This document shows positions 4,664 through 29,042 of a stretch of DNA of 60,805 nt, in pieces. A model generated the notes under the pieces. The model saw nothing but the letters and a program-made list of their open reading frames with translations, searched no databases and was not told where the DNA came from. Origin of the DNA: a virus (Duplodnaviria > Caudoviricetes); IMG/VR virus record IMGVR_UViG_3300025087_000067, positions 1 to 60,805 of that record; one strand, 5' to 3'. Position numbers and translations under genes: made by a program. Each line of letters opens with the position of its first letter. Within the stretch, counting starts at the first letter, position 1.

Positions 4664-6151
4664 GTGGGGAAAAAACGGGTTGAAGATAAGGATTCGCGCG
4701 AGCAAATCCACCAGGACGTAGAGCGGTTCCTGTACGATCCCCTGGGATACGTCATTTGGGCGTTTCAGTGGGGGGAGCCCGATACCCCGTTAGCCGAGTT
4801 TCCGGACGGTCCCGATATTTGGCAAACCGAGTTCCTGGATTACGTAGGCAGAACCTGTCTGGACGCCGAATCCGCGGTTCAGCTGGCGGTGAAATCCGGG
4901 CACGGTGTTGGGAAATCCACGATGGCGGCCTGGATGATTCTCTGGGCCATGTCTACCCGCCCGTATCTGCAAGGGGTTGTCACGGCTAATACCGGACAAC
5001 AATTACGAAGCAAGACCTGGTCGGCCCTGAATAAGTGGCACGATCTGGCAATGAATAGGCACTGGTTTAAGTGGACGCCCACGAAGTTCTATCACGTTCA
5101 GTATCCCGAGACCTGGAAGGTCGATGCCGTGACCTGGTCGCCGGAGAACTCGGATGCGTTTGCGGGTACGCACGAGAAATACGTTTTGATGCTTTTTGAC
5201 GAGGCGTCTCAGATCCACGACAATATCTGGGAAGTGGCGCACGGTGCGCTCACGAGCCCGAAAGCGATCTGGATGGCGTTCGGGAACCCGACCCGGAATA
5301 CCGGGGGGTTTCACGAGTGTTTTGGGACCGGGAAACAGGCGCATCGCTGGAAACAATTCACGGTCGATGCCCGTAAATCCGCGGTTGCGGACCATACCGT
5401 TCACGACCACTGGATCGAGGACTATGGTCTGGATTCAGATTTTGTGAAGGTCAGGGTTCTCGGTGAGTTTCCGGGTCAGGCCTCGGATCAGTTCCTAGCC
5501 ACGGAATACGTGCAGGAATCATTCAAAAGACGGTACCGGGACGAACAGATCCAGCACATGCCGATCGTGCTGGGAGTCGATGTCGCGAGTTACGGGGGTG
5601 ATGAATCGGTCGTGACGGTCAGGCAAGGCCTGGTGGTCCACGAACAGATCGCGGATCGCGGGCTCTCGACGCCCGAGACCTCGGATATGGTCGAGCGCGT
5701 GATACTCCGATACCGGCCTGACGGCATCTGCATCGACTGCGATGGCATCGGCACGGCGGTGGCGGATGAGCTCGCCAAACGCGGGCATGAAATCCATCGC
5801 ATCTACGGGATGGAGAAAGCCCGGAACCCGAAACTCTATTTCAATAAGCGCGCACAGATGTGGGGCGATTGCCGGGAATGCGTGCATCGCGCGCTCTCAA
5901 TCCCTAATTACGACCCGGTTCTTGAATCGCAATTAACCCAACAACAGTACCATACCCGGCGGGGCTCGATTCAATTGATCTCGAAAGCGGATATGCGGGC
6001 GGCGGGCATGGATTCGCCGGACCGCGCCGATTCCCTGGTCTATACCTTCGCAATCAATCCCCAGAAACGCGACGCCGATGATTACGATGAGATCCAGGGC
6101 TCCCGCTATGCCGTGAGCCAGAACACAAGCGTCGGCCTCCTTGGAGCATGA
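4664..6151 (+). CDS. terL: terminase large subunit
   Basis: Walker A 'KSGHGVGKS', Walker B 'LFDEAS', 'GNPTRNTG', nuclease 'LGVDVA' and 'SPDRADSL'. Confidence 0.95.
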   Translation: MGKKRVEDKDSREQIHQDVERFLYDPLGYVIWAFQWGEPDTPLAEFPDGPDIWQTEFLDYVGRTCLDAESAVQLAVKSGHGVGKSTMAAWMILWAMSTRPYLQGVVTANTGQQLRSKTWSALNKWHDLAMNRHWFKWTPTKFYHVQYPETWKVDAVTWSPENSDAFAGTHEKYVLMLFDEASQIHDNIWEVAHGALTSPKAIWMAFGNPTRNTGGFHECFGTGKQAHRWKQFTVDARKSAVADHTVHDHWIEDYGLDSDFVKVRVLGEFPGQASDQFLATEYVQESFKRRYRDEQIQHMPIVLGVDVASYGGDESVVTVRQGLVVHEQIADRGLSTPETSDMVERVILRYRPDGICIDCDGIGTAVADELAKRGHEIHRIYGMEKARNPKLYFNKRAQMWGDCRECVHRALSIPNYDPVLESQLTQQQYHTRRGSIQLISKADMRAAGMDSPDRADSLVYTFAINPQKRDADDYDEIQGSRYAVSQNTSVGLLGA

Positions 6152-8271
6152 TGGATACCTTGACCGCCAATCCTGATTTTAACGCCGCTGTGGCCGAAAC
6201 CGAGAAACCGGAAGAGCCACGGAAACGCCGGTCCCTGGACCTCACGATCCTGGATCTCGTGGGCATGGAGAACATTGCGGTCATGCTCGACGAGCGGGGC
6301 GAAAACGGGTTAACAGCCATTGGGTCCCAGGTGGTCGAGGACTACGAAGCCGACCGCGGGAGCCGCCAGGAATGGGAGGATAAGGTCAGGAAAGCTAAGG
6401 AATTGGCGTCCTTGCAGGGTCCCATGACCAGCTCCTTCCCGTTTGTCGGGGCCACGAACCCCAAGATACCGTTACTGGCCGAGGCCTGCACGCAGTTCTC
6501 ATCCCGCGCCATGCCAGGGATTCTGAAAGACGGGGACCCCGTGAAGGGTCGAGTCTGGGGAAACGATGAGGGGGGCAAGAAAGAGGCGCGCAAGAATCGT
6601 ATCCAGGCCTGCATGAATTACCAACTCATGGAGGAGACCGGCGATTGGGTCCGGGGTCTCGATCGATTACTGGTTGAGGAACCCATGGTCGGGTCCGGGT
6701 TCAAAAAAGTCTATTACGACCCGGTCTTGGGCCGGAACGTCAGCGAATTCGTGCCCAGTGAAGACCTCGTGGTCGATTACTACGCCCGGAGCCTGGAGCG
6801 AGCCGCCCGCGTCACGCACGTCTACTACCTGTATCCCTATGAAATTGAACAAAAAATGCGGTCCGGTGAATACCGGGAAACCGATCTCAAGACACTGGGG
6901 ACTTGGGAGTTGCAGGATTCCAAGCCCCGGGACCAGATCCAGGGCGAGGGCCAGGATCCGGGGGGAACCGACGATCGTTCGAAACCCCATGAAATACTGG
7001 AACAACACTGTTGGCTCGATTTGGATGAAGACGGTTTGTCGGAGCCCTACATTGTGTTTGTTCACCGGGAATCCCGGTTTGTGTTCCGGATCACGCCCAG
7101 GTTCCTGGAATCCGGTGTTGATATAGATGCCGCGACCGACAAGGTCCTGAGCGTTGTCCCCGAGCAGTATTTCGTACCCTTTATCTTCCTGGAATCGCCG
7201 GATGGCGGGTTCTACGGCATGGGCTGGGGCACGCAGTACGCATCGATCAATGAGACGATCAACGCTTTGTATAAACAATTGCTCGATGCCGGAATCCTGG
7301 CGAATGCGCCTGGGGGTATCCGTAAGAAGGGGATGCGGATCAAAAACAACGACATGACGATTGTTCCGGGCGAGTGGAAGGAAGCGGAAATCGCTGAAGG
7401 CACTAGACTTGGGGACTATTTCTTCCCATTGCCTGTTAAGGAGCCATCGCCGGTTCTGGCGATGCTGGTTGATAAGTTGATGCAGTACGGGCAGCGCGCG
7501 CTCTCGAACGTGAACGTCATGGCCGGTGAGAGTCCGGGCGCGAATGTCCCGGCCACAACGACTGTGGCTTTGATTCAACAGGCCATGCAGCAGTTCACGG
7601 CGATTTACGGGAGGATTTACCGGGGGCTAGCACTGGAATACAAGCTCCTGGCACGGCTCAATTACCTGTACATGACTCCCAAGCGCTACCGGGAGATCCT
7701 GGATATCCCGGATGCTGATCCGCAGCTGGACTTCAATAGCCAGGACTGCGATGTCATACCCGCCGCCGATCCCCGCTACGCCACAAACGTACAGAAGCTC
7801 TTCATGGCCCAGATTGTGGAATCTTTGTTAGGCAAGGGATACGACGACCAGAAACTCAGAAAACGATTACTGGAATACCTAGGTGTCGAGGATCACGAGG
7901 AACTGTTACCGAAACCTGATACGTTACCCGCGATTGATCCTAGGACGGAAATACAACTCAAGGAACTGGAACTGAAATCCGTGATGGCCCAGATCGAACT
8001 CAAGCGCGTGGAGAACGATAGCATGCGGGTTGGGAACGAGATCGCGAATACCAAGAACAACATGGCGATCGAGATCGAGATGGCGCGCGCCAAGATCGAG
8101 GACATCCAGGCCGATGTCAGGCGTAAGGACCGCCAGTATTCCGTGAAGGACAAGGACGACCAGATTCTGCGGCTGAATGAGGTCCTGAACCAGGCGCTAA
8201 GCGCCATGCAGGACATGGGACTACAGAAACGGATACCGGGACCGGACGTTCCGGGAGCGGAGACAGCCTGA
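6148..8271 (+). CDS. portal protein (P22-like)
   Basis: 707 aa directly after terL; 'GSGFKKVYYD', 'ILEQHCWLDLDEDGLSEPYIV', 'GGFYGMG'; C-terminal coiled coil. Confidence 0.9.
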   Translation: MMDTLTANPDFNAAVAETEKPEEPRKRRSLDLTILDLVGMENIAVMLDERGENGLTAIGSQVVEDYEADRGSRQEWEDKVRKAKELASLQGPMTSSFPFVGATNPKIPLLAEACTQFSSRAMPGILKDGDPVKGRVWGNDEGGKKEARKNRIQACMNYQLMEETGDWVRGLDRLLVEEPMVGSGFKKVYYDPVLGRNVSEFVPSEDLVVDYYARSLERAARVTHVYYLYPYEIEQKMRSGEYRETDLKTLGTWELQDSKPRDQIQGEGQDPGGTDDRSKPHEILEQHCWLDLDEDGLSEPYIVFVHRESRFVFRITPRFLESGVDIDAATDKVLSVVPEQYFVPFIFLESPDGGFYGMGWGTQYASINETINALYKQLLDAGILANAPGGIRKKGMRIKNNDMTIVPGEWKEAEIAEGTRLGDYFFPLPVKEPSPVLAMLVDKLMQYGQRALSNVNVMAGESPGANVPATTTVALIQQAMQQFTAIYGRIYRGLALEYKLLARLNYLYMTPKRYREILDIPDADPQLDFNSQDCDVIPAADPRYATNVQKLFMAQIVESLLGKGYDDQKLRKRLLEYLGVEDHEELLPKPDTLPAIDPRTEIQLKELELKSVMAQIELKRVENDSMRVGNEIANTKNNMAIEIEMARAKIEDIQADVRRKDRQYSVKDKDDQILRLNEVLNQALSAMQDMGLQKRIPGPDVPGAETA

Positions 8272-8528
8272 TGGATGAACTGGAACAGGAATTCAGGGGC
8301 TGGCGCAGTCACGGAATGGCTCAGCTCTTTTTCCAAGCGCTGGCCCGGAAACGGGAGATTGAGGCCCAGGCCATCCTCAGCGGCGGGACCCTGGAATCCC
8401 CGGCGTTCACGGCCCAGAAAATAGGATTCGTACAGGGTCTGGATTGGGTGCTCAATACCTGCGTGCCCGATAGCCCTGTCATCGACGGCGAGACCGCCGT
8501 TTATCTCAATCATGGGAGAAAATCATGA
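8271..8528 (+). CDS. hypothetical protein (post-portal)
   Basis: coupled ORF at a conserved position between portal and chaperonin. Confidence 0.65.
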   Translation: MDELEQEFRGWRSHGMAQLFFQALARKREIEAQAILSGGTLESPAFTAQKIGFVQGLDWVLNTCVPDSPVIDGETAVYLNHGRKS

Positions 8529-8833
8529 TTATACCCACGTTATATCGGGTCATTGTAAGGCCCGAAATCGTCGAGGAGACGAAAAAAGGAAGTTCGATTA
8601 TTTTGCCGGAAGAGGTCAGGGACCGGGAACAATTTGGTATCGACCGCGGCACGCTCGTCGCTTGGGGTCCCGAAGCATCGCTCGGTTCCGGGGTATCGTT
8701 CAACAAAGGCGAGCGAGTGATTTACGCCCGGTACGCGGGATGCCTCGTCACGGATGATGACGGCACGGACTACCGGATCATGAACGACAAGGAAGTCCTT
8801 GCATTGGTACGAGCCGAAGAAGGAGTTGGCTGA
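8525..8833 (+). CDS. GroES-like co-chaperonin
   Basis: 'PTLYRVIVRP..EETKKGSSIILP...GTLVAWGP...GERVIYARYAG...YRIMNDKEVLA'. Confidence 0.9.
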   Translation: MIIPTLYRVIVRPEIVEETKKGSSIILPEEVRDREQFGIDRGTLVAWGPEASLGSGVSFNKGERVIYARYAGCLVTDDDGTDYRIMNDKEVLALVRAEEGVG

Positions 8834-9732
8834 TGGATACTTTGTTAAATGGGCTAGACGTCCGAAACCTGGAGCCTGAACCCGAGGACACGGATCAGGA
8901 CCAGGATCAAGATCAGGATCAAGAGCCAGATCAAGATCAGGAGCCAGCGGGAGACCGCACGAAGGACCGGGAACCCACGGAAGTTGAGCGCCTGGCGCTT
9001 TCCATGAACTGGGACCCGACTTTGGAGAAAACCGCTGAGGAGTTCATTCGCGATCTCGATCAAGTGCATCGGGAGCAGCGCAAACGAATCCGGCAGAAAG
9101 ACCGGCAGCACGAAGCGCAGATGCGGAAGATGCGCCAGCAACTGGATGATATTCAGGGTAACATGCGCAGCCAGCGTGAGGCCGAGCGCGCACGCGAGAT
9201 CCAGAATCTCGAACGCTCCCGCCAACAAGCGTTTGATGAACAGGATGAAGCGGGATTCCGGGAATACGACCGGCGGCTCCGGGAACTGGAGCGCGGTCAG
9301 GCTCCGGGCCAGACTCGCGATAGCCAGTCGCAACAGCCGGAGATCGATCCCCGCGTTCAGGCCTGGAAAGAAAAGAATCCCTGGTACGATTCCGGCGAGA
9401 ACCCGAGGGAAAAACACATGGCGGATGCCGTCTTTAACGAGAGCCTGGAAGCCGGGTTCTCCGTCACGGAGTGCTTGCAAGCGGTCGATGAGGAACTTAA
9501 GTATTTCAGGGGCCTCAATACTCGCGGGGGCCAGAAACCGAAACTCCCGCTTGTCGGCGGTGGCCGCCCTGGATCGAGCTTTAAACCCAGGGGGCATACC
9601 GTCGCGGACCTGCAACGTGATGATCCTCAAGCGTATGAGGTCATGCGCGCGTACGTGAAAGCCGGGACTCCTGATGGGAATGGCAAACCCATGACTCCTG
9701 AAGCGTATATTAAGGATTACTATGATGAATAA
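8833..9732 (+). CDS. capsid scaffolding protein
   Basis: acidic N-terminus, coiled coil, 'WKEKNPWY' motif, position before capsid genes. Confidence 0.75.
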   Translation: MDTLLNGLDVRNLEPEPEDTDQDQDQDQDQEPDQDQEPAGDRTKDREPTEVERLALSMNWDPTLEKTAEEFIRDLDQVHREQRKRIRQKDRQHEAQMRKMRQQLDDIQGNMRSQREAERAREIQNLERSRQQAFDEQDEAGFREYDRRLRELERGQAPGQTRDSQSQQPEIDPRVQAWKEKNPWYDSGENPREKHMADAVFNESLEAGFSVTECLQAVDEELKYFRGLNTRGGQKPKLPLVGGGRPGSSFKPRGHTVADLQRDDPQAYEVMRAYVKAGTPDGNGKPMTPEAYIKDYYDE

Positions 9733-10306
9733 ACCAGTGGCGAGCAACCAGAAACCAGATCCGAGCAACGGAATCACTTTAAGCGGGACCCCCGGTCAGC
9801 AAGCCGAGGTTCCGGTGGTCCAGAACGAAGTTGTGTCCGGGAGTACGCCAGGGCGCGACCCCGACCGTCCGAAATACCGATTGGATGAAGAGCTACTCAC
9901 CGCGCGTCCGCGCGTGATTCCTCTCTTCGTGATTCCGGGTTACAAGACCCATATCGTGGCCTACGACCCGAAGAATCCGGGAAGCGTCCAGCAATGGATC
10001 GAGCACGGCTGGGAAGAGATCATGCCCGCGAATGCCGATCCAAGCCAGGCGGTCGAGGAAAACATTAACCGCGGATACGAAATGACCGGCAATCGCTGCG
10101 CTCTCGGCGGTGGTCTCATCGGTATTCCCATGAAACTACCCGAAAAATACTACCAGCTGAGCATGAGGAAACTCGAGGTTTTGAACGACTCCATGCTCGC
10201 AAATATCGACGGGCGAGGTTCGCTGAAAGAAGAGGCGAACGACGACGAATTTTACGGAACCCGCGAGACTAAAGGCCGCGGGGTCAAAATCACAAGAGCC
10301 CGATAA
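9722..10306 (+). CDS. head-module hypothetical protein
   Basis: between scaffold and capsid genes; 'GW' and 'MKLPEKYY' pattern typical of this slot. Confidence 0.6.
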   Translation: MMNKPVASNQKPDPSNGITLSGTPGQQAEVPVVQNEVVSGSTPGRDPDRPKYRLDEELLTARPRVIPLFVIPGYKTHIVAYDPKNPGSVQQWIEHGWEEIMPANADPSQAVEENINRGYEMTGNRCALGGGLIGIPMKLPEKYYQLSMRKLEVLNDSMLANIDGRGSLKEEANDDEFYGTRETKGRGVKITRAR

Positions 10307-10336
10307 CCCTATGTGGGATCGGGGGAGGATTCAATC

Positions 10337-10939
10337 ATGTCAAACACCAATCGACCCAATGGGTTCACGCCCATCGGTCGCAATGGCGGTGCCTATACCG
10401 GGGAACTCACCCCGTATGCCGTGGCCTCGAACTACGCCACGGAAATCCGCCTGCGCGACCTCGTTAAATTAGCCGGTTCCGCCGATGCCGCGGGACTCCC
10501 CACGGTCGCAAAAGCTGGGGCTACGGATGTCCCGGTCGGTATCGTCTGCGGAGTCGAGAACTCCACGAGCTTGCAATTGGAACGCAAGAGCATCCCGGCC
10601 TCGACCGGCGGAATCGTCTACGTATGCGACGACCCCAACGCATTGGTCGAAGGCCAAATCTCCGGCGCGGTAGCCGCGACCAATTTCGGCCAGACCATGA
10701 ATTTGGTCGATGCCGCGACCACCACTAACGTCAGCGACATGCAGTTCGATTACGATTCGCTCTCGGCTGCGGCCGGAACGTCTGAGGACCGGGTGTTTCT
10801 CTTGGAACGCCTGGTACCGGAACCTGGAAATGAAATGGGCATCTACGCCCGAGTCATCGCAAGCTTCAACCTGCATCAACGCGGTCGCGGCGTTAAAGAC
10901 GCGACTGTTGGCAACGTTGTCGGACAAATCGGCGTCTAG
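10337..10939 (+). CDS. capsid-associated (cement/decoration-like) protein
   Basis: GGAGG SD; 'MSNTNRPNGFTP...VYVCDDPN'; immediately before MCP. Confidence 0.7.
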   Translation: MSNTNRPNGFTPIGRNGGAYTGELTPYAVASNYATEIRLRDLVKLAGSADAAGLPTVAKAGATDVPVGIVCGVENSTSLQLERKSIPASTGGIVYVCDDPNALVEGQISGAVAATNFGQTMNLVDAATTTNVSDMQFDYDSLSAAAGTSEDRVFLLERLVPEPGNEMGIYARVIASFNLHQRGRGVKDATVGNVVGQIGV

Positions 10940-10953
10940 AAGGAGATTGAACT

Positions 10954-11868
10954 ATGCCACCAATTACTACCGGCTCAATGAGCAAACTATTGAAGCCCGG
11001 CGTTCAATCCTTCTGGGGCACCTACAAGGACCTGCCCAAGATTGCACGCCAGATATTCGACGTCCGACGTTCGGGTATGAAATTCGAGGAACTGGTCGAA
11101 TTGATCGGGCTCGGTGCGGCACGCCGCAAGTACGAGGGACAGAGCATCGCCTTCGGTACCGCCGAGCAAGGAAATACCACCACGTTCCTGAACCTCACCT
11201 ACGGCCTGGGATTTATCATGACCCGGGAAATGATCGAAGACAATCAGTACCCGACCGAAGGGCCGCGACGCGCCCAGAGTCTCGCGCGGTCCATGGTCGT
11301 GACTGAGGAGACGCTGGGAGCCAACGTGCTGAATAACGCTTTCAGCAGCTCGTATCTCGGCGGAGACGGCGTCTGCCTGGGTTCGGCGTCGCATATCAAT
11401 TCGGTTGACGGCAGTTTATGGAGCAACCTGCTCTCGCAATCGACCGATTTCAGCGAAGGTGGGATCGAACAGGCCTTGATCGAGATCGACGCCTTCACCG
11501 ACCCCCGGGGCCTACACATTAAAGTCAGCCCCAAACAGCTCGTCGTGCCACCCAGCAAGCAATTCATGGCCCAGAAGATTCTGACCACGATGACCACGCC
11601 CTTTACCGGGAATCTGACGAAGAACATCATCGCCACCCAGAATCTCATTCCCGGCGGTGTCGTGAAGTGGAACTATCTGACCAATTCCGTGGCGTGGTTC
11701 CTCACTACGGACGCCCCGGACGGTCTGGTCATGTTCGTGCGCCGCCCGGTCGAGTTCGGTGCAGATAACGACTGGGATAACGAGAACGCGAAGTATAAGG
11801 CCACGATGCGTATCGTGTTCGGCTGGGCCGATCCGCGCGGAATCTTCTGCTCGGCAGGTATCCAGTAA
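10954..11868 (+). CDS. major capsid protein
   Basis: AAGGAG SD; 'LLKPGV', 'YGLGFIMTREMIEDNQY', 'GGDGVCL.SASH', 'FGWADPRGIF'. Confidence 0.9.
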   Translation: MPPITTGSMSKLLKPGVQSFWGTYKDLPKIARQIFDVRRSGMKFEELVELIGLGAARRKYEGQSIAFGTAEQGNTTTFLNLTYGLGFIMTREMIEDNQYPTEGPRRAQSLARSMVVTEETLGANVLNNAFSSSYLGGDGVCLGSASHINSVDGSLWSNLLSQSTDFSEGGIEQALIEIDAFTDPRGLHIKVSPKQLVVPPSKQFMAQKILTTMTTPFTGNLTKNIIATQNLIPGGVVKWNYLTNSVAWFLTTDAPDGLVMFVRRPVEFGADNDWDNENAKYKATMRIVFGWADPRGIFCSAGIQ

Positions 11869-11885
11869 TGAAAGGAGAGAGAATC

Positions 11886-12653
11886 ATGAAACGATTACCT
11901 ATCCTTGCATTGCTACTCACCACGCTGTTGCTGGGATTCGCGCACGCTGAAGTCACACGATTCCCCGGTGGTGTCAGCACCGGCGATATCGGTAGCCTCT
12001 GGCAGAACTTTACGGTTCCCCAGTTCACGCGCGCGCATACCTACTTCGACGACTTCGATCGCTACAGTGCCGACGACTGGTCGATCACCACGACGGCCTA
12101 TGTCTCGACACCGGGATCGACGCTCAGCGATGCCGATAAAGGCCTTCTGAACACCACAAATGTCAACGGCATCGGTGGCGTGCAGATTCACCAAGGCACG
12201 GCCGAGACCTTCTTGTTTGAAAGTGGCAAGGAACTCTGGTTTGAGGCCCGTGCCTCGGTGGTCAACGTCACGTCATGTACCGCCGTGGTCGGTCTCTGCC
12301 AGACCTCTTCCTACGATTACATCGGCCAGCAGGTGGCTCTGTTCGTGAAACCCCCGACCACGTCCTCGACGCTGTTTGTCGTGCGTGCCGCGGACAACAC
12401 GAGCGCTGCCAGCACGACCGTTGCAACCGGTATCGACACGGTCGCCGAAGCGACGGCCGTGACCTACGGCTTCTATTACAACGGCGTCTCGACCATTACC
12501 TACTATGTCGATGGCGTTCTAACCGGAAGCGTGGTGAACACCACGATGCCGACTCTGGAGGTCGCGCCAACGTTCGGCATTATCTCCGATGTCACGGGAA
12601 GCGCCACGAATCAGCTCAATGTTGACTACATCTTCGTAGCCAAGGAACGATAG
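11886..12653 (+). CDS. post-capsid beta-rich decoration/fibre-like protein with N-terminal signal peptide
   Basis: MKRLPILALLLTTLLLGFAHA|EVTRFPGGV; 'YFDDF' and 'VDYIFVAKER' suggest a ConA-like fold. Confidence 0.7.
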   Translation: MKRLPILALLLTTLLLGFAHAEVTRFPGGVSTGDIGSLWQNFTVPQFTRAHTYFDDFDRYSADDWSITTTAYVSTPGSTLSDADKGLLNTTNVNGIGGVQIHQGTAETFLFESGKELWFEARASVVNVTSCTAVVGLCQTSSYDYIGQQVALFVKPPTTSSTLFVVRAADNTSAASTTVATGIDTVAEATAVTYGFYYNGVSTITYYVDGVLTGSVVNTTMPTLEVAPTFGIISDVTGSATNQLNVDYIFVAKER

Positions 12654-12659: not shown

Positions 12660-12694
12660 GGGAGTGGCGTGGCCCTCGCGGTTGCGCCACTCCC
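12660..12694 (+). terminator. strong stem-loop after the capsid genes (terminator or processing site; no U-tract)
   Basis: GGGAGTGGCG...CGCCACTCCC perfect 10-bp stem extended by G-U pairs. Confidence 0.5.
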
Positions 12695-12712: not shown

Positions 12713-13033
12713 ATGGCCGGTCTGCCACAGACGCACTACGTGCCCGGAGACGCGAATTACAGCTGTCCGCGTTGCGGGTTCCAAGTCAAGCACTCGACAA
12801 CCAGACGGGAATGGACGAGAACCCGTGTATGTGCCCGGTGCTGGGACCCGATGCCGGTACAGTACAAGCCGGGGTACGGTTATGTCTATAACCGGAATCG
12901 GATACTGGAACCGAGTCCGGAACCCGAACCACTGTACGTCGAGGACATCGTGGCCGCGGATGAACTGGAAGGCATTATCTACCCGGACGATCAATACGTC
13001 GGGACGCCGGATGGCGATAGATTTGGCTGGTAA
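12713..13033 (+). CDS. small Zn-finger protein of the head-tail module
   Basis: CPRCG...VCARCWDP; GGGAG SD. Confidence 0.75.
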   Translation: MAGLPQTHYVPGDANYSCPRCGFQVKHSTTRREWTRTRVCARCWDPMPVQYKPGYGYVYNRNRILEPSPEPEPLYVEDIVAADELEGIIYPDDQYVGTPDGDRFGW

Positions 13034-13035
13034 TC

Positions 13036-13968
13036 ATGGCAACTTCAGGCTCGACCGATTTTAAGATGACGTGTAGCGAGATCGTGCAGGACGCGATGCA
13101 GAAGATTGGTGTCGTGGGAGCCACGGAAACGCCGAGTAACGCCGACATGGATACGGGCCGCAAGGTCCTGAACATGATGGTGAAGGCCTGGCAGAACAAG
13201 GATGTCGGGATGTGGTTCCTACAGGAAGCGAATCTGTTCCTGCAATACGGGCAGCGGGCCTATTCCCTGGGACCATCCGGCGATCACTGCACGCTCTCTT
13301 ACGTGCGGTCCGCGTTAGCGGAAGCGGCTGAAGCCACGGACACGACCCTGTATTTGGATGCCAGCGATATGAGCACCGGGGATTATATCGGCATCGTTCT
13401 GGACGACGGGACCCTGGATTGGAAAACTTTGGATACCACGCACACGGCTACGGACGCGGTCATTACCGAGGGCCTGTCCGGGGACGCGGCTGCCGGGAAC
13501 TACGTGTTTGCGTACAGCACCAAGATTCAACGACCGGTCGATGTTTTGGACGCGCGGTTCGATGTCCTGGATGGGGGCCAGCAGCCGGAGATCGAATTCG
13601 TCAACCGCTCCGATTTTTTCAAACTCTACGACCGGGTCGCGCGCGGTCAATTGATCCGCGCTTACTACGATCCGCAGCTCACCAATTCCCGTATCTGGGT
13701 CTGGCCGACGGCGGATAACGTGAACCATACCGTGAAACTCACACTTCAGGTCCGGGTCGAAGACCTGGACGCATTGACGGACGACATTCAGTTTCCCAGC
13801 GAATGGCTCGAAGCCCTGACGTACAACCTGGCGAAACGGCTCTGCCCGTATTTCCTGAAACCGGTTCCGCCGGACATCGACGAGTTTGCCCGCACGGCCT
13901 TTAACGATGCTTCGATGAAAGACGAGGACAGCTCGCCGTTTAGAATGGGGGTGCGCTGGGATGGCTAG
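13036..13968 (+). CDS. head-to-tail adaptor (P22 gp4 / T7 gp11-like)
   Basis: 'MATSGSTDF', 'LNMMVKAWQN', 'WVWPTAD', 'FPSEWLEALTYNLAKRL'. Confidence 0.8.
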   Translation: MATSGSTDFKMTCSEIVQDAMQKIGVVGATETPSNADMDTGRKVLNMMVKAWQNKDVGMWFLQEANLFLQYGQRAYSLGPSGDHCTLSYVRSALAEAAEATDTTLYLDASDMSTGDYIGIVLDDGTLDWKTLDTTHTATDAVITEGLSGDAAAGNYVFAYSTKIQRPVDVLDARFDVLDGGQQPEIEFVNRSDFFKLYDRVARGQLIRAYYDPQLTNSRIWVWPTADNVNHTVKLTLQVRVEDLDALTDDIQFPSEWLEALTYNLAKRLCPYFLKPVPPDIDEFARTAFNDASMKDEDSSPFRMGVRWDG

Positions 13969-15880
13969 GGCTGTTAAATCCAGTTGGAACATCATGGGCG
14001 GGGCCTATCAAGGCCAGTCCCTGGATGCCAATTCCCAGGAATGTGTGAATCTGTATCTGGAAACGGATCGCGCGGGAGGGCGCACGGCTCTGATCGCCAC
14101 GCCTGGATTGCAGGGGAAATTCATTCTCTACGACGCGAACGGGATTTGCCGGACGCAGGCAAAATCAGGGGCTGGGACTCTCTTGTGTAACGGAGAATTA
14201 TACGGCCAGGGATTCGCCAACGACTTCTATCTCATGGTCCGGTCCACGGGAAACGATTCGGGAGTAACGTTCAGTATCACGGGGATCGATCGCGCCGGCG
14301 CCCAGGTCACGGACTCGTTCTTAGGGTCCGATAGCGGTGTCGCTTACAGCACAGAAACGTTCTATTCCATTGTCAGCATCTCGGTCTCGGGAGCCCTGGC
14401 GGGATCCGTCACGATCGGGGCCTCGGCGCTCGCCACGCTCCCGGCCTGGTTCAGGGGCACTGAAATTCGGTGTCTCAGGGATCTCGACGGCGTGCTCTAT
14501 GCCGTGATTGGGAACCTTCTGGTCTCCATCACGACCGGCGGGATCGTCACGGCCTTAAACGACCATGCGATGAATACCTGGCAAGGGATTGTTACCGCCG
14601 ACGACAACGGCCGTCAGATCATGTTCTGCGACGGAACCCTGCATCTCGCGTATCTCTACGATGCCAGCGACTCGACGTGGACGCGTTTGAACGAGAGCGA
14701 CTACGAGTTTTTGGGTGGGGGCAGCGTCACGTATTTCAACGGCTATTTCCTAAGTCACGAACCCGGAACCAATAAAGTGTATTTCTCAGGATTCACAGAC
14801 GAGTTGTCGGACGGCCTGGTGTGGGACGCCCTGGATTACCTGGAAGCGAATTCCAACAGTTCCGATATCGTCCGGGTCCTGACCGACCGCCGTGAACTCT
14901 GGGTATTCAAGACCGATATCACGGAGATATTTTACAGCACGGGGGATGCTGATGCGCCTTTCGCGCGGCGGCCCGGCGGTTCGCTGGATGCCGGATGCCT
15001 GGCCGTGGGGTCCCCCGTGGTAGCGGACAACTCCGTGTTCTGGCTCGCACACGACAGGACAGTGCGGAGAGCCACGGGGTACAACCCGCAGGTCATTAGC
15101 ACGCCGGGCATCGCGTACCGGATCGGGCAGTACCAGGATGCGAGCGATGCTGTCGGATACTCGTATTCCCTGAACGGGCGCATCCACTACATGCTGGTTT
15201 TCCCCACGGGAGACGATACCTGGAGTTTTGAGTCAGAGGCCGGGAACTGGATACGCCGGGCTTCGTACGTCACGGATACGGATCGAGACGGGCGGTATCG
15301 CGGGAATGCCTACACGGAGTTTAATAACTGGAACCTGGTCGCCGATTACGAGAACGGCATTATTTACGAACTGCGTTCCGATGTCTATACCGAGAACCTG
15401 AAACGCCGGAACTGGCTGAGACGCGCGCAGGTGATTCAGAGCCAGAACAATATGATTTTCTACGGGTCACTGGAAATCGAGTTTGAATCCGGTGTTGGAC
15501 GCTCCACGGGCGTGAGGCTCCAGGATGTGATGGATACCTGGAATGAAGTGCTGACTGGTGAAAGCACGGGCACGGACTACACGGGGGACGGCTCAATCAC
15601 TTTAGACGACGTGACAGCGGCTTGGGCGTTGTACCAGATCAATAGCGCCGGTCCCTGTGCCCAGCCTCGTGCGGCGCTCCGGTACTCGAATGATGGGGGC
15701 CACACCTGGGTCAGCGAAGGGTGGCGTGAGATCGGCAGAACCGGGGAATACAGCCGGGGTGTCCGGTTCGATCGCTTGGGGTCCGCGAAACACCGGGTGT
15801 TCGAGATCCACGGCGGCGATCCGGTCAAAACCGTGATACTGGGCACGACCCTGCGGGCCGAAGGAGGCCTGGACTCATGA
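13961..15880 (+). CDS. tail nozzle / packaged-DNA stabilisation protein (P22 gp10-like)
   Basis: 'QECVNLYLE', 'ISTPGI', 'LRYSNDGGHTW...IGRTGEY...RLG...RVFEI'. Confidence 0.9.
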   Translation: MARAVKSSWNIMGGAYQGQSLDANSQECVNLYLETDRAGGRTALIATPGLQGKFILYDANGICRTQAKSGAGTLLCNGELYGQGFANDFYLMVRSTGNDSGVTFSITGIDRAGAQVTDSFLGSDSGVAYSTETFYSIVSISVSGALAGSVTIGASALATLPAWFRGTEIRCLRDLDGVLYAVIGNLLVSITTGGIVTALNDHAMNTWQGIVTADDNGRQIMFCDGTLHLAYLYDASDSTWTRLNESDYEFLGGGSVTYFNGYFLSHEPGTNKVYFSGFTDELSDGLVWDALDYLEANSNSSDIVRVLTDRRELWVFKTDITEIFYSTGDADAPFARRPGGSLDAGCLAVGSPVVADNSVFWLAHDRTVRRATGYNPQVISTPGIAYRIGQYQDASDAVGYSYSLNGRIHYMLVFPTGDDTWSFESEAGNWIRRASYVTDTDRDGRYRGNAYTEFNNWNLVADYENGIIYELRSDVYTENLKRRNWLRRAQVIQSQNNMIFYGSLEIEFESGVGRSTGVRLQDVMDTWNEVLTGESTGTDYTGDGSITLDDVTAAWALYQINSAGPCAQPRAALRYSNDGGHTWVSEGWREIGRTGEYSRGVRFDRLGSAKHRVFEIHGGDPVKTVILGTTLRAEGGLDS

Positions 15881-17610: not shown

Positions 17611-18528
17611 ATGCCTCAGTATTTTACAGGATTATCGCCAGAGCAATACACGGCCCCACTCTCCGCGTACGTCGAGGGGCGCAAGGCGCGGCAGGATATT
17701 CGTCTCGGTGAGAACCGCGTGAAATTAAGCGACTTGACCACCAAGTGGATGGAGGAGGACCGGCCCTACGAGGTCGAGAAGCTGAAGCGGGATAAAACGC
17801 TTGGGGATCAGCAAGTCACACTCGGCGGGCTCGGCTTGAAACAAGCCGGGCGTGAAGAAGAAATCGGTGCCTCCACGTTCGAGAAGCAGAAAGAATACGC
17901 GATCAATCTCCTGGAATCCCGGCTATCGAAACTCAATACCGATCAGAAAGCCGAAACCATTGCCATGTACGGAGACGCTGCCGGAATGTTGCAGAAAGCC
18001 TTGCCGTACATGGAAAAACTCGAACAGTACAATAATTTTGTGGACAAGATCAATGGTTTTATCGGCGACACGGGATTACCGACGTTTCAGAACTTCTCGG
18101 GGACACCCGAGGAATTTCCAACATTCAGAGACAGTCAGAATAAATTGATCTCCGAGGTTGGAGCACAGTTTCAGAAGTACGTGAAGCAGACCGACTACAT
18201 GACCGGGGCTTTGAAGACTCGGGAGGCGAATAAGACGGCGGAGATGAAGAAGCGTGGGGGCCAGGGCTCAGCGCCGAAAGCAGAAGACACGGTCAAGCAG
18301 CCGACCGTGAGCGAGCGGGCTTCGGCGCTCAGGCTGGCGAAGGATGAACTGACTCTCGATCCGCAGGTTCTACCCACAAAGGAAGATATCGAACGTCGCG
18401 CCCTCGAAATTCTTCAGGACCGATACCCGAATTGGAACCCCAAGGGCGTTCGGGTTGGCGGCAAAACGGAAGAACAACAATTGGCCGATGAGGATTGGCG
18501 CACCTGGAAAAAGCCACGGGGTATGTAA
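17611..18528 (+). CDS. internal virion / ejection protein (gp20-like slot)
   Basis: AGGAG SD; helical; lies between the gp7-like gene and the large protein. Confidence 0.6.
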   Translation: MPQYFTGLSPEQYTAPLSAYVEGRKARQDIRLGENRVKLSDLTTKWMEEDRPYEVEKLKRDKTLGDQQVTLGGLGLKQAGREEEIGASTFEKQKEYAINLLESRLSKLNTDQKAETIAMYGDAAGMLQKALPYMEKLEQYNNFVDKINGFIGDTGLPTFQNFSGTPEEFPTFRDSQNKLISEVGAQFQKYVKQTDYMTGALKTREANKTAEMKKRGGQGSAPKAEDTVKQPTVSERASALRLAKDELTLDPQVLPTKEDIERRALEILQDRYPNWNPKGVRVGGKTEEQQLADEDWRTWKKPRGM

Positions 18529-21500
18529 TGCCTATTCAAGCTTATAAAAACTGGATGCTCGATCCTGAGTACCAACAACTCTCGATCAAAGAGCAGCGTC
18601 GTATTCTCGAAAACTATTTTAACGGCAAAATAGTTGACGATGAGTTTCGCTCATTACCAGAAAACGAGCAGATAGCAATACGCAATAATTTTCTTAAAGA
18701 TCATTTTACACCAGACATTGAGAAGCGTCTTGGTATTGAAATACGCGAACCAATTAACACAAAGCCTAAAGACGCATCGGGACAAGGTGTTGTTGAAAAC
18801 CTTGCTGCTGGGTTCATGCAAGGCGTAAAAGCGCCTACCGCTAGTGTTGTCGGTTTGTTTGATCCTGAAGTTGGCGCTGAGATGCAGCGTGACATCCAGG
18901 AACAGCATCCGTCTGAAGGTGCGGCTGGATTTGTTGGGCAATCCTTGGGTAGTGTTGTTCCATCGGTTTTGGCTTTACCTGCCGGTCCTGCTGCTGCGGC
19001 GGCTGGCCTTGCCGGTTACTACGGTGCGAGTGGTGCTGGTGAAGAACGCATCAAGGCATCTGAGGCGCGTAAAGCCGGAGAGGATATTCCGACAGAGCAA
19101 GAGTTTAAGGCTGCTATTGGAAACGCTTTAATTCAGGGCGGTGGAGAAGCCGCCATGGGTGCGGCCTATGCTAAACTGTTTGGTGCCGGCGGAAAACTAA
19201 CTGGTAAGTTATTACCACGAACGGCGAAGGGTGCCGGTTTAGGTGCAGTGGTTGAGGGTGGGGAGGAATCTATACAACAGACTGCGCAGAATGTTTTAGA
19301 ACGCGAGACTGGCATTGATCCTGACCGTGGAGCGTTTGAAGACGTTCCAGAATCATTCCTGGGTGGTGCAATAGGCGGTGGTTTTCTGGGCGGTGCGGGT
19401 GGTGTCTTGACGCCACAACGCCAAGTTGAGGATGTGCAGCAGGATACTGCACAAGGTATGGAGTTTGCTCCAGTCGGCGTCACGGCAGAGGATATGCTAT
19501 CCGGCATGGAGAACGCGACGGACGCTGATTTGCAGCAGGCACTCGGTCGCGCCCATGAAGCACTCGGGCAAGACCAAGACAACCAGGAAAAGAGAAAAGC
19601 GTTCATTGCCATCAAGCGGGAGATCGAGCGGCGGAACCAGCCACCCCAGCCAGATGTGTTACGAAACCAAGCCAACGATCTTCGCGTGCAACTGGTTAAG
19701 GAACCGGACGAGCAGAAACGCGCCGGGCTACTGGATCAACTGACCAAGGTGGAACAGAAACTCCAGGCGTCCGGGGTGCAGCGCACGGGCATCGGGACTC
19801 CATTGCAGACGCCGGAGACGGTGAAACCAGATACTCGCCCGTCAGCGACCAGTGAACTGGATGTGTTGCGCCAGGAAAGCGAGCGTCTGAATACCGAACT
19901 GGAGGACAGCCACAAGCGCTCTCGCGGGCTGCAGGAAAAAATCGCCGGGACGACCAACGATCACACCAAGCGCATAATCCTGATCGAGCAGCTGGCGGCT
20001 GAGGTCCAGGAATATAAAAGTAAACTCGCACGCCAGGCCGGAATCGAGCTTCGTGCCGGGGAACTCCGTGCTGCCGCAGCACGCAAACAGCTTCCCGCGC
20101 CACCGGAACCAGCGTTGCAATCCGCAGTCGATCCGAATCTGATTACTCCCACTCGCGGCTCCATGGCCGAATCCCAGGTCGAGGCCGGGATGGTCGAAAA
20201 TCCCTTGGAGCGTGGCGGCGTCGAGGCCTCGACGGCCAGGGCCAGGCAACAGCGCACCGTGAGCCAGCCTTCAGCACCAGCCCTGGAAGCTATCGATCTC
20301 GCAACTGATTACGGTGTCCGGGCCGAGACGGAAGCCAAGATTAACTCAATGCCGCGCAAGGAACTGAACGCTCTGGCGAAGTCGTTGGGCGTTGATTCTA
20401 AAGGGAACGTCGGCGAGTTACGCCAGCGGTTACTCAAACGCGGCGTCGATCCGGCAGTCCTTGGAATTGACCGCGACGCAATCCGACAGAAGGTCGAGGA
20501 TGCGTTAAACAACCGCAAACCGCCTCCACCGCCCGCAGGACCCGCTGGCCCATCCGGCCCGGCTCCGACGAAGCCAAAGGGACCGGCACCGGTTAGTCCG
20601 AGTCCACAAGGCACGCTTAATGATGCAAAATCCGCATTAGAGCAATCCGATCTACAGCGTACAGGTATATCAAATATCAGCGGTTCAGAATACTTTGCAG
20701 TTGATCGTGATTATGCTGATAGGCCAGATTACCCAAGGTTACGTGTCTCAGATCATGCGACGACCGGACGAGGCCAATCTGCCGCTATTGAAGTTGGCGA
20801 CCATCAAGATGCCGATTTTGGATTAAACGAGATACCCCAGGCAATAGAGCGGTTAAAACAACTCCATGAACAATGGCGGGAGGAAAATGGATTCAATGAA
20901 GAGAAGGATGATGTAACAACGAATCATATTGAGGATGGAGAAACTCAGGGTACCAAGCGCGTATTAGTCAAGGATTCCGATGGCAAGGTTTTAGGTGAGC
21001 GCATCGTGGTAGTTAATGGCATTCCACTCAGTAAGCGTGATGCTCTGTATAAAAACGCACTACGAGAAATCAATCAGGAGATCAAATCTAAAACGCCAGT
21101 AACCCAGGAGACGATCAATGATACGCAAAACCAAGAGGGGGTACGTGGTGCAGTCCCGCGAGGGCAAGAACCTGGGAGGTCCGTACAAGACCAGGGACCA
21201 AGCCGAGAAGCGCCTGCGCCAAGTGGAGTACTTCAAGCACCGGGACAAGGGGAAGTAGGCGAAGGCACCGTTTCCCGTACGCCCGAGACGACGCAACGTA
21301 AACCTCGTGCGACCAAGCCGGGGAAGCCCCTGCACGACATGAAGTTTAGTACGTGGTTAGCCGACGCTCTTTACAGGATTACTGGCAAGAGAGGGTCCAA
21401 GATCGGTCTTCCGGCTCCTAATGTTCTTGGCAGCCACGAGTTTTGGGCGCACACAGATATCCTCGACCGATACAAACACAACGACGCAAACGCACGGAAT

Positions 21501-24500
21501 AGGCGTAAGGGCGAGTTGTTTATCTCCCCAGCCAGAATCAGGGAATTCACAGGACTGTCGCCATCCCAAGCCAAGCGTAACGGCGATGTTGACATCCAGC
21601 GTATCTATGATGAGTTTCGCGCCGACTTCCCCGGATTCTTCCCCAATGTCGAATCCGAACAAAATTATGGAACGGATTACGAACGGGAAGCCATTAAGGC
21701 GTTCATGGACATCCTGAAGTCCAGTGCTCCGACAATACTTGACGCCGCCAAACAAAATCGTGTTACTATCCTGGATGAATCCATGCTGGCCGATGAGTTG
21801 CTTGCGAAGCACCAGTCGGAAGAGGAAGCAGAGTTTGAAGCGTGGCTCGATGAACACCCCGAAGCGCGCAAGAGGATTGAAGATGAAAAAGCCAAGCGAT
21901 CGAGAGCTGAGAGTTTATCTGAGGAAGAAGCAGCTAAAGAAGGAGCTATTAACGAAGCTCTTGAAGCACTTCAATCAGAGGGGTATCCAGCCGACGCGAT
22001 CGACAGAGACACGGTAGAGATTCTCGTTGACTACGGATACACGACGGATGAAATATTTGAGTCCTTTGCGCGGGATCAAGGAGAACTCGATGCAAGTCTT
22101 AATCCCGATGAATTTGAGGACGCTTTCTCACAAGCCGTCGATGCCTTTCTCGAAGAAAAGGCAAGCCCGAAGCCCGTAAAACCACAGCAAGAAACGCCTG
22201 AGCATCTTGAGCCTCCCGATGCTAAGGGGAATCAACAAAGTACGTTTGTGGATTACGAGGAGGACGATAAGGGACTTCTCGGCGGGCTCTTCTCCCGCAC
22301 CAAGCCCGTGGCCGCTGAAACGATCCTCCAGGAAGCCAAGGATACGCTGGGCACGACGGAGAAACTGACCGAAGCCGGATTTGTGCTGCCTGACGGGACG
22401 CTGATTGTTGTGCCCCAGCGGGGCGGTAAAAAATCGTGGTACACCGCAGGGCATAAATGGATTGCCAGTTTGATACCGAGTCTTCAGGACCGCGTATCGG
22501 CACTCACCGACTTCATGGAAGCCGGGGCTATTCGTATCGACTATCAGCCCGGCGGCGGGAGTACGATCGAGATCAGGGGCGTGCCGACCGCCAAGCAACA
22601 AGCGGTTCTGACGCGCATGATCGAGGGCTCCAAGGGTGCCATCCCGGTTGATATGATCCGCACGCTCCCTGACGGGTCTCTGGATATGTATAGCGGCTGG
22701 TATACCGATTCCAAGACACTGGCTGCCGACGCCAAGAGTTTCGCATCCGGGCGCTTGAAGATGACCGGGAGTTTGATTCAGCAATTCCACCAGTCTGACG
22801 GGACGCACTGGGCCGGGCGGCGGAACAAAGTTCAGGGCATGGGTGTACTGAAGACTGCGCGTGCCGTTGCCCCGCTTGGTTACGAGCTGGAGGTTGTGAA
22901 AACGATTAACGATCTGCCTCCCAGGATGCGGAAGCGTGCTGCGAAACTATCGAGGGATGGCTTCAATATCGAGGGCGCTTACGATCCCGAGACTGGCGTA
23001 GCCTACTTGGTCGCTTCTAACATTTCGAGTGCCAAGCGTGCGGTGGAAGTGGCTCTGCACGAGAGCATTGGTCACGGTGGTTTGCGTGGGGCATTGCGTG
23101 GGAAACTGAATACATTTTTGTCGCGCATGGCGTTGAGTAAAGAGTATCGTGATAAGATCAAATCGCTGTCGAAGGAACTCAAGATTGACCGTCTGGAAGC
23201 GGCAGAGGAGTTTTTTGCCAAGAGCGTTGAAGACGGGACGATTGACCAGTCATGGTGGAGCAAGTTTGTAGGGGCTTTCCGTGCTGCACTGAGGGGTATC
23301 GGGATTGAGTTAGAGTTTACGTCTCAGGACCTGAAGCGTCTGGTCCGCATGGCTCACAAGGCGGCGCAGCTACGGGGGGATACTCGTACCAGTGGTGCGA
23401 GATTTAGCGCCACGAAGCCAGCGACGGAGTACGATCGTCTGTATAACGGCCTGCTGGAGGGTGGCGCGACGCCTGATGAAGCCGCACGCTGGGTTGAGGA
23501 GATGGGCGTTACCAAAGACACCCCGCTCAGCAAACCGGCAGAGGCGACGGAGACAACGGGATTTTCAATACCGGAACAAACGGCGTTACAAAAACTTGGG
23601 CAGACGTTTTGGAATAAGTTTAATCGCCTAGAGCAAATTCAAGACATCATTGGCAAGGTCGCAGAAGATCAAGATGCCGTGATGGCTAATGAGTTATTGC
23701 CTGGGCGTTCCGGCAATGAAATCCTCGACTTTAGCAAGAAAGTTATCGACCCGATTCTGAAGCGTCTCGCGCACGCTAAACTAACACTCGATGATCTAGG
23801 CGTATTTCTCTATGCCAAGCACGCCAAGGAACGCAACGAGCACATTGAACGTAAATGGGCTGATATTGAAAAGATTCCCAAGAAGTACCGTGAAATCATT
23901 GATGTCATACGGACTCAGGGTTCTGGTATGACCAATGAGGAAGCTCAGGCCATTCTTGACCTGTATAAAGATGACAAGGTTATACAGGAGTTAGCTAAAG
24001 AGGTTTGGGCCTACGAGCAAAAGAATAGGGATCGTCGTCTGGATGCCGGATTGTTGACGGAAGAAGAACACCATGTTTTGAGTACGATGTTCGATTTTTA
24101 CGTTCCGCTCAAGCGGGACAAAAACGGCAAGAGTCGTATGCGTACCGGAAAGGGATTGTCGGTTTCCGGTCCCGAGATCATTCAAGCGTGGGGGCGCACG
24201 ACACCGGCACAGAATCCATTCGTGCAATCAACGCTCGATACTGTTGAAGCCATTGTCCGGTCTGAGAAGAATCAGGCCATCGAATCGCTTGCAAAATTGA
24301 TCGAAGCGAATCCTAACGAAGATTTATGGACGATCCACGAGCAGAAGTATATCCCATATTACAATGAGGGTGGCGAGTTTCAGGGTACGCACCCATCGCA
24401 CATTATCAATGAGAATCAAGATGTTGAATTTAAGCGGAATGGCAAGCAGTTTATCATCAAAATTCACGACGAAGCGTTGGTACGTGCATACAAAAATCTT

Positions 24501-28869: not shown

Positions 28870-29042
28870 AACCAATAGCAACATTAATTATCCACGGACT
28901 TCCTGAGATGAAGAAGTCCGAACTAAAACGTTTACTGATTTGGCTTTCTACGCAAGCTGAAGCAGTTGTATCGAACCCAAAGGAGTATAACAGGCGCTAT
29001 ACGGCGCAGTTGCACCACAGTAAAGCGCAGGTGAGCCGATGA
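28866..29042 (+). CDS. small hypothetical protein, paralogue of 2410..2598
   Basis: MKPIATLIIHGLPEMKKSELKRLLIWLSTQ...RRYTAQL. Confidence 0.65.
   Translation: MKPIATLIIHGLPEMKKSELKRLLIWLSTQAEAVVSNPKEYNRRYTAQLHHSKAQVSR

Follow-up and report, generated by a model that had tools for sequence, protein, structure and literature searches.

A predicted signal peptide on a jelly-roll protein encoded beside the capsid gene of a temperate short-tailed phage

The gene behind the capsid gene and its product

IMG/VR virus record IMGVR_UViG_3300025087_000067 is a stretch of 60,805 bases with an estimated completeness of 87%, here called the window, and holds nearly all of its genes on the + strand. We analyzed the gene at 11886-12653 (+ strand), which lies directly downstream of the gene for the major capsid protein (MCP) across a gap of 17 nucleotides (nt) and encodes a protein of 255 amino acids (aa) that ends at a TAG stop (12651-12653). 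A Shine-Dalgarno (SD) sequence, AAAGGAG, stands at 11871-11877 on the + strand and is followed after 8 nt by ATG 11886, giving a product that begins with MKRLPILALLLTTLLLGFAHA followed by EVTRFPGGV. The preliminary description of this DNA had pointed to this SD sequence and to the lack of an in-frame ATG near VTRFPGGV. Both statements are correct, and GTG is absent as well between codon 1 and the motif, where the only in-frame start-type codons are TTG codons 9 and 15, which lie within the hydrophobic core and have no SD sequence. An ATG farther upstream, at 11868, overlaps the MCP stop codon as TAATG and would prepend MKGERI to the basic N-terminus; it is used by one database gene call (P0272, 261 aa).

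The first 21 residues have the three-part organization of a signal peptide according to rules that reportedly go back to the work of von Heijne. A positively charged n-region (M-K-R, residues 1-3) is followed by a 15-residue hydrophobic core, LPILALLLTTLLLGF, and by the c-region AHA, with small residues at -3 and -1 and no Pro at +1 (A19-H20-A21, then E22), so that signal peptidase I is predicted to cut between AHA and EV. The peak Kyte-Doolittle mean over 12 residues is 2.59, compared to at most 1.45 in leaderless relatives and 1.82 in P0055, a protein with a probably miscalled start. There is no lipobox Cys (residues 1-30 contain no Cys) and no twin arginine (K-R, not R-R). The length of the core, the A-x-A and a Gly near the end of the core favor a cleaved leader over an anchor. 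Contigs of relatives from soil carry a 3-nt in-frame deletion at 11924, within the leader core. Among the open reading frames (ORFs) picked in the block from portal to tail fiber (6148-27482), one other had a leader-like N-terminus; this ORF, 8854-9777 on the minus strand, lies opposite the scaffold-like gene and is in our reading a shadow ORF. Inspection by eye gave no support for PglB-type glycosylation, since all N-x-S/T sites lack Asp or Glu at -2.

AlphaFold2 (AF2) produced a model of the protein with a mean predicted local distance difference test score (pLDDT) of 85.2 and a predicted template modelling score of 0.81. It comprises a low-confidence leader (pLDDT about 50; residues 7-15 form a short helix), an extended arm (residues 22-48) and a beta jelly roll (residues 49-255). 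The top Foldseek match in the PDB was 2A5Z, protein SO2946 (E 6.8e-8; TM score 0.53-0.56), followed by enzymes of glycoside hydrolase family 16 (GH16) and legume lectins. VIA-align comparisons of residues 47-255 with GH16 structures gave Z scores of 16.8-19.4 and root-mean-square deviations of 2.7-3.8 Å over 175-206 aligned residues, the best match having Z 19.4 and 2.7 Å over 175 residues, and sequence identity to the GH16 and lectin structures was 7-18%. By its modelled fold, the protein is a member of the concanavalin A (ConA)-like superfamily. The GH16 signature E-[ILVM]-D-x(1,2)-E was found in none of 259 family rows, query included, and the looser pattern E-x-D-x(1,2)-E does not occur in the query. 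Judged by its sequence, the protein is thus not a GH16 enzyme, and because the catalytic motif is absent we read the domain as a putative binding module.

The family, its N-terminal motif and the spread of the leader

A word-indexed search returned 115 homologues at E ≤1e-3, most of them covering 91% of the query. In a profile search against 1.84 billion representatives, 4,663 clusters passed E ≤1e-3 and 772 of these reached E ≤1e-30; the query itself scores E 3.8e-67 in the family profile search. Almost all members have about 225-240 aa and no name, and in the ESM Atlas they occur in viral clusters only, so this is a large, uncharacterized viral family. No Pfam family matched the query even at E 10, and PDB sequence searches found no solved structure related to it by sequence. 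Three relatives pass Pfam cut-offs (P0006, 28.7 against 27 bits; P0033, 28.0 against 27.6 bits; and P0012), placing the family partly in PF22237 and PF13385, and the query is therefore a divergent member rather than a non-member. Longer fused forms, such as a fusion to the MCP, were not seen at E ≤1e-3 among 6,713 candidates, which is weak evidence.

The family has signatures at both ends, present in the query as TRFPGG (residues 24-29) and DYIFVAKER (residues 247-255), and its invariant residues are G29, D56, G136, G200, D247, Y248 and R255. The N-terminal motif, T-R-F-P-G-G-V at residues 24-30, lies in the arm and occurs once in the window in all six frames. Most members begin with Met and 1-8 residues followed directly by T-[RN]-[FY]-P-x-G. 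The statement in the preliminary description that related proteins start almost at this motif was borne out, since 4 of the 115 homologues have leaders and the rest begin with M, 1-8 residues and T[RN][FY]PxG, or are shorter.

We followed the leader through several samples of the family. It was present in 10 of the 150 best cluster representatives and in about 5% of the rows of 200-300 aa (12 of 254, with P0055 reclassified as a miscalled start); of the other rows, 234 are leaderless and 8 carry a different, longer N-terminal domain. Among IMG/VR loci, none of a first set of 80 and 2 of a further 39 (L095 and L127) encode a leader, and the distant locus L121 has a hydrophobic N-terminus ahead of a different N-terminal region. 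The set from bacterial genomes and metagenome-assembled genomes (MAGs), mostly unplaced MAG contigs, comprised 11 loci, and none of the 10 with a readable N-terminus has a leader; the eleventh, L092, matches only query residues 152-255 at a contig end. For the other leader-bearing members, only the contig of P0157 (which is L127) and one L095-type locus were recovered; IMG/VR yielded neither that of P0110 nor that of P0146, and the metagenome collection did not yield that of P0110 either.

The position of the leader is constant. In all 14 leader-bearing proteins (the 12 family rows, L095 and the beta-helix protein P0284 described below) the hydrophobic stretch ends immediately before the motif, 1-5 residues ahead of it, Ala occupies position -1 in 12 of the 14, and the leader sequences differ. 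In the query, a cut between AHA and EV would leave 2 residues ahead of the motif, within the 1-8 of leaderless relatives. Cleavage would therefore restore an N-terminus like that of the leaderless proteins, and the comparison supports the leader being an addition to a normally leaderless protein. Maximum likelihood trees built without the N-terminal columns put leader rows in 6-7 places with 6-7 changes, but they are star-like and poorly resolved, and in an approximately unbiased (AU) test on 46 rows under LG+G4 a single leader clade was retained (p-AU 0.25). Since the trees are poorly resolved and one clade was not rejected, neither a single nor a repeated gain can be claimed. Of the grafted leader proposed in the preliminary description, the addition and its placement stand, and an independent grafting event is a possibility.

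The signatures are at least as conserved with the leader as without it. In the 12 leader rows, G29, F/Y26, E254 and R255 are each present in 12 and P27 in 11, compared to a frequency of 0.95 for G29 in the leaderless rows, and both the motif and the C-terminal DY..AKER hold up at least as well as in the 234 leaderless sequences. One relative, P0003, has a leader and motif nearly identical to those of the query, yet its identity over query residues 19-255 is 39%. Function seems, from this pattern, to be kept after export. Because of the sequence features and the recurrent exact placement of the leader, Sec export with cleavage by signal peptidase I is a well-supported prediction.

A second fold carries the same N-terminal peptide in the same slot. 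Contig L127 (19 kb, 44% GC) has its module in the order of the window and two genes after the MCP gene, encoding a 342-aa protein of beta-helix type (P0284, at 8908-9936) and a ConA-like protein, each with a leader and then the motif (MTNYPNGF... and KRYTDGI...). At L015, a leaderless 494-aa relative (7614-9098) that starts MPISNYPNGF lies between the MCP and ConA-like genes. The L127 beta-helix protein has 261 relatives of about 305-330 aa that start M-x-x-S-N-Y-P-N-G-F; among the best 120 of them, 108 have the motif, placed among residues 1-10 in 107 of these, and P0284 alone carries a leader. Its relative P0340 matches DUF1565 (E 3e-6), and the L127 protein itself has sub-threshold beta-helix matches only. 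As two unrelated folds share one N-terminal peptide and one slot, we argue that the peptide binds a common partner and is not fold-specific. The T-R-F-P-x-G motif thus has the look of a portable attachment peptide whose cargo, sugar-binding or sugar-cutting, can be exchanged.

In one soil study, contigs of three runs (X12, X13 and X15) suggest that the cargo can also change between close relatives. They match the window up to 11911 or 11980 and resume at 12546 or 12622, skipping 634-641 nt of the jelly-roll body, and are 80-95% identical to it in nucleotide sequence over the parts they retain, namely the MCP gene, the leader, the motif and the final 10-35 codons. In other contigs, part of the body is present at about 94% identity. 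The body looks as if it had been replaced among the soil relatives, in a cassette-style variation. Constant ends and a variable middle fit an attached host-recognition protein, and also fit pressure from varying host glycans.

Genomic setting

We compared the position of the gene across the family in the 70 loci that have at least 1,100 nt of upstream sequence. An MCP homologue ends no more than 200 nt upstream in 62 of them; of the other 8, 4 have the MCP gene farther off or behind another gene and 4 show no MCP. In the window, portal, adaptor and nozzle genes flank the gene as well (Table 1). The preliminary description had assigned the protein to a capsid-decoration slot, and the position after the MCP holds; binding to the capsid is putative, being suggested by gene order and motif conservation. 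Complex prediction for the MCP and the mature protein (residues 22-255) gave a score of 0.00 in two runs without controls, and so speaks neither for nor against binding. Searches of PDB sequences found no match to the gpD beta-tulip, Soc, the Ig-like Hoc, Dec, or the epsilon15 gp10/BPP-1 cement proteins, and no decoration or cement fold stood among the about 50 Foldseek and VIA-align matches listed, a list saturated by GH16 enzymes and lectins, so that this is not evidence of absence. Nothing among these matches assigns the protein to a known decoration family.

Table 1. Features of the gene, its surroundings and other parts of the window.
Feature	Position	Strand	Remarks
Terminase	4664-6151
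SU10-type portal	6148-8271
GroES/cpn10-like gene, 102 aa	8525-8833		inside the head module, between portal and scaffold-like gene
Scaffold-like gene	8833-9732
Two genes (194 aa, and the 208 aa of the next row)	between scaffold-like gene and MCP gene
208-aa protein	10313-10939		just before the MCP; phrog_37556 (unknown function)
MCP, HK97-type, Mu gpT-like / Phage_capsid_4	10954-11868	+	PF25209 E 2.7e-14; PF10124 E 6.8e-6; phrog_371 major head protein
Alternative ATG	11868-11870	+	overlaps MCP stop
Gene under study	11886-12653	+	directly downstream of MCP
Signal peptide (predicted), residues 1-21	11886-11948	+	n-region, h-region, c-region; predicted signal peptidase I cut
N-terminal arm, residues 22-48	11949-12029	+	proposed attachment peptide, residues 24-30
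ConA-like/GH16-fold beta jelly roll, residues about 49-255	12030-12650	+	AF2, Foldseek, VIA-align
Stem-loop	12660-12694	+	15-bp stem, 5-nt loop, no U-tract
Small Cys-rich, zinc-ribbon-like protein	12713-13033	+	zinc-finger Pfam matches sub-threshold only
SU10-type adaptor	13036-13968
Nozzle/head-closure protein	13961-15880
DNA-ejection-type protein	downstream of nozzle gene
2,553-aa protein	18495-26156		C-terminal LPD38 E 2.3e-41; phrog_14770 E 1.5e-145 (giant phage proteins, unknown function)
Fiber-like ORF, 439 aa	26163-27482		read from N-terminal sequence; no significant family match
Six ORFs with signal-peptide-like or hydrophobic N-termini	27495-28310, 28310-28654, 29039-31834, 32152-32634, 32780-34522, 36844-37539	+	between fiber-like ORF and lysis genes, the last just after the holin
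GH108 + PG_binding_3 endolysin, holin	after the block of leader-like ORFs
Tyrosine integrase	39144-40376		phrog_1 E 2e-63; PF00589

The stem-loop that follows the gene had been described beforehand as strong and as a sign of probable production at capsid-level stoichiometry. The hairpin is real. Its minimum free energy is -36.7 kcal/mol in an 81-nt stretch, and in 22 of 52 distinct loci of relatives the gene is followed by a hairpin that exceeds the genic mean in strength by over 5 kcal/mol. The stoichiometry is an inference from gene position and from this hairpin, given a z-score of -2.2 (6 of 200 shuffles fold equally well), the lack of a U-tract and the absence of a call at 12660-12694 in the terminator scan. 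The stem-loop may be a transcript-end or stabilizing hairpin for the MCP and ConA-like gene pair. Among the 16 runs that contain window DNA, none is listed as RNA.

The small Cys-rich protein encoded next is a recurrent companion of the family and may be a partner or a neck component. Proteins with the same type of N-terminus are encoded 3' of the ConA-like gene in L127 (11263-11733) and L095 (6899-7345), and in these two loci and the window the gene follows the ConA-like gene directly or one ORF later. L135 has an 85-aa ORF of the same Cys-rich type farther downstream of its MCP gene (6211-6471). The pattern is of the C-x2-C ... C-x2-C type, and some of the relatives end E-x-R-H-P-Q.

On the other side of the MCP gene, the GroES/cpn10-like gene has a counterpart in Caulobacter phage RW (L001, 2628-3059) that is annotated as co-chaperonin GroES, Cellulophaga phage phi18:3 has two cpn10 genes, and L127 and L095 have ORFs of similar size and N-terminal sequence in the same place. 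The protein of 10313-10939 is also matched in size and place by ORFs in L127 and L095, which share an N-terminal x-F-G-L-K-P-[IV] with each other; it could be a protease, a second decoration protein or something else. The closest MCP relatives in IMG/VR, at 43% identity (L134 and L135), have other genes in the slot after the MCP. The slot holds two genes in each of them (L134 1081-2201 and L135 4016-5342); inspection by eye suggests a methyltransferase and a glycosyltransferase, which is a guess.

The phage of the window is a temperate short-tailed phage, temperate because it encodes a tyrosine integrase. No tRNA, Rfam match or attachment site was found in the window. Window DNA is present in groundwater and soil metagenomes of the metagenome collection. 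Only the type of endolysin (GH108 + PG_binding_3) suggests a Gram-negative host. The 2,553-aa protein is probably an ejected internal virion protein. None of the six leader-like ORFs contains the T-R-F-P-x-G motif, and the 931-aa one among them has sub-threshold matches only (an LtfC-like beta-sandwich and a Disaggregatase repeat). Their layout ahead of the GH108 endolysin resembles that of gp085-087 in phi18:3.

Export, attachment, alternatives and known systems

We propose that the gene product is a Sec-exported version of an accessory protein that is widespread in short-tailed phages and encoded beside the capsid gene. A 21-residue leader for Sec and signal peptidase I is fused to the front of the protein, and its removal would leave a mature protein with 2 residues before the motif, consisting of the arm with T-R-F-P-x-G and a non-catalytic jelly roll. 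The motif would serve as a portable attachment peptide, common to the beta-helix (pectin-lyase-fold) family in the same slot. The protein would be made late together with the capsid protein, cross the inner membrane, be cleaved and accumulate folded in the periplasm. Up to this point we consider the scheme, taken as a whole, highly probable. At lysis, when holin, endolysin and spanin mix the compartments, the N-terminal arm would dock the protein on finished particles, where it would face outward as a glycan-binding appendage and aid adsorption to polysaccharide of the host surface. That the exported protein joins the particle at lysis is our best reading, and a tentative one. It is favored because the motif is kept, both post-MCP proteins of L127 have leaders, the gene follows the MCP gene with tight spacing, a stem-loop is frequent after it, and phi18:3 (KC821620) offers an annotation in the same sense. 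In that record gp085, gp086 and gp087 are annotated as structural from experimental tandem mass spectrometry (MS/MS) proteomics and have signal-peptide-like N-termini, which the nine other MS-supported structural proteins of the record lack. We found no other experimental hint that proteins of the exported type can be recovered together with particles.

Several points weigh against attachment to the virion. None of the family members has been localized to a virion, and the link to the capsid is one of gene order. Tailed-phage particles assemble in the cytoplasm, so an exported protein meets them only at lysis, when dilution is fast. The literature searched contained no description of exported virion proteins of tailed phages or of such a route. 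Lectins and glucanases share the fold, which is generic and uninformative as to capsid binding. With six further leader-like ORFs in a temperate phage, export could serve a host-directed role, and the phi18:3 proteins detected by MS could be co-purified contaminants. A rationale for export in disulfide formation or oxidative folding was rejected for this protein, since Cys 131 and Cys 138 lie on one predicted strand (E131-139) and would therefore not pair within the monomer. In the family, an even Cys count of at least 2 is found in 6 of 12 leader rows versus 23 of 234 leaderless rows, and any count of at least 2 in 6 of 12 versus 37 of 234 (Fisher p = 0.008, a weak result because the rows are kin). 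Literature searches also returned no description of a signal peptide on a conserved accessory protein of the head module, and nothing for decoration, concanavalin and cryo-EM combined.

The most serious competitor, in our judgment rather unlikely, is that the exported protein stays off the virion as a free sugar-binder in the periplasm or at the cell surface. It would bind host surface polysaccharide or periplasmic precursors and mask the receptor, blocking superinfection or stopping progeny from sticking to debris, as a lectin-type counterpart of Llp and Cor. The clear leader is consistent with this, and so are the lectin- and GH16-like fold without catalytic residues and the presence of several other secreted-looking proteins in a temperate phage. 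The jelly-roll body is swapped between close relatives, as expected of a part that tracks host glycans, and export removes the protein from the cytoplasm, the site of particle building. The two ends of the protein argue the other way: in an unattached protein neither the motif nor the extreme C-terminus would keep its role, yet both are conserved as in leaderless relatives, even at 39% identity. L127, moreover, has two types of cargo with the same motif, both with leaders, and the gene stays close behind the MCP gene and has not moved to an early or lysogeny-expressed region.

It is improbable that the hydrophobic N-terminus remains uncleaved and, as a signal-anchor, keeps the jelly roll tethered to the inner membrane on its periplasmic side, for instance as an exclusion or lysis-timing factor. 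Phage lysis proteins with uncleaved signal-anchor or signal-arrest-release (SAR) N-termini are known, such as the HP1 SAR endolysin; the title of a report on T4 RI, however, names a cleavable signal peptide and not a SAR domain. The core of 15 residues is short for a stable transmembrane helix, and A-H-A is followed by Glu at +1, with the Gly near the end of the core. The Ala at -1 just before the motif in 12 of the 14 leader-bearing relatives would be a purposeless fit if the leader were not cut.

Still less probable is an exported GH16-like enzyme that aids release by attacking, from the periplasm, the polysaccharide of envelope or capsule. GH16 glucanases are the best structural matches, and the slot partners in L127 and L015 are beta-helix proteins, a type used by depolymerases; the GH16 signature is nevertheless missing from all 259 rows, and the invariant residues of the family form no such motif. 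That the leader is an artefact, with the true start downstream or an N-terminal stretch devoid of function, we find scarcely credible: start miscalls do occur in the family (P0055 and P0002 have spurious upstream extensions), but here no ATG or GTG lies in frame from codon 1 to the motif, a strong SD sequence is properly spaced from ATG 11886, differing leaders recur with constant placement in 12 of 254 family rows and two more IMG/VR loci, and the in-frame indel of relatives leaves the frame intact.

Signal peptides are common on phage lysis and exclusion factors, and the textbook assembly of tailed phages is wholly cytoplasmic. An exported protein of the virion module, with a leader that restores the family N-terminus, would imply either an attachment step after lysis or a part of the particle repeatedly turned into a secreted, host-directed factor, and either would, if true, be new biology. 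Attachment at lysis would add an extracytoplasmic last step to tailed-phage assembly, with jelly-roll or beta-helix cargo swapped like cassettes between conserved ends. As a more speculative generalization, some tailed phages may route their outermost sugar-binding appendages through Sec, with a peptide T/S-x-F/Y-P-N-G exposed by signal peptidase, folding in the periplasm and docking at lysis. The shared peptide with its swappable lectin-like and beta-helix cargo may be a natural display scaffold, and may mark host-glycan recognition modules in metagenomic phages. The protein makes a compact test case, being a single chain of 255 aa with a clear leader, a short mutable motif and hundreds of leaderless relatives, including one in the cultivable Caulobacter phage RW.

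Among known proteins, the nearest in fold is SO2946 of Shewanella oneidensis (2A5Z; PF22237 SO2946-like_C, also PF13385 Laminin_G_3), a structural-genomics protein without known function, on whose name a literature search found nothing functional. GH16 beta-glucanases and laminarinases and the legume lectins share the jelly roll over residues 47-255; the arm and motif of the query have no counterpart in them, and the catalytic ExDx(x)E is missing from the family.

In the role proposed here, the protein resembles the head fiber gp8.5 of phi29 and Hoc of T4, dispensable adhesin-type proteins attached to the capsid and encoded next to the MCP. They too are outward-facing, non-essential appendages on the finished shell that contact surface glycans, but they have other folds (a fiber and an Ig-like fold, respectively), lack a signal peptide, and join the shell in the cytoplasm, where they are made. 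Since lambda gpD and T4 Hoc and Soc attach in vitro to capsids that are already complete, docking after lysis is feasible chemically. Llp of T5 and Cor of T1 and phi80 are exported phage proteins that block receptors. As predicted for the query, they are sent through Sec, and like them the query would act at the receptor side of the envelope; they differ in being small lipoproteins or outer-membrane proteins of unrelated fold that are produced early or by the prophage and have no origin in a virion module. In phi18:3, gp085-087 are much larger than the query (547-785 aa) and are encoded before the lysis genes, not beside the MCP.

The closest known relatives are leaderless. The only cultured carriers are the Caulobacter phages RW, RLK, KcrB and GB2A, a group on which one paper (PMC11053796) was found; the protein, GP084c in RW, is annotated in these carriers as hypothetical. 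The leaderless proteins of this type share with the query the fold, the T-[RN]-[FY]-P-x-G motif and the C-terminal DY..AKER at 29-42% identity. Their genes usually stand, as in the window, after the MCP gene and before those of the small Cys-rich protein, the adaptor and the nozzle, although RW has a 501-aa gene between MCP and GP084c. Unlike the query, these proteins start 1-8 residues before the motif, at about the point where the predicted cut would place the N-terminus of the exported form.

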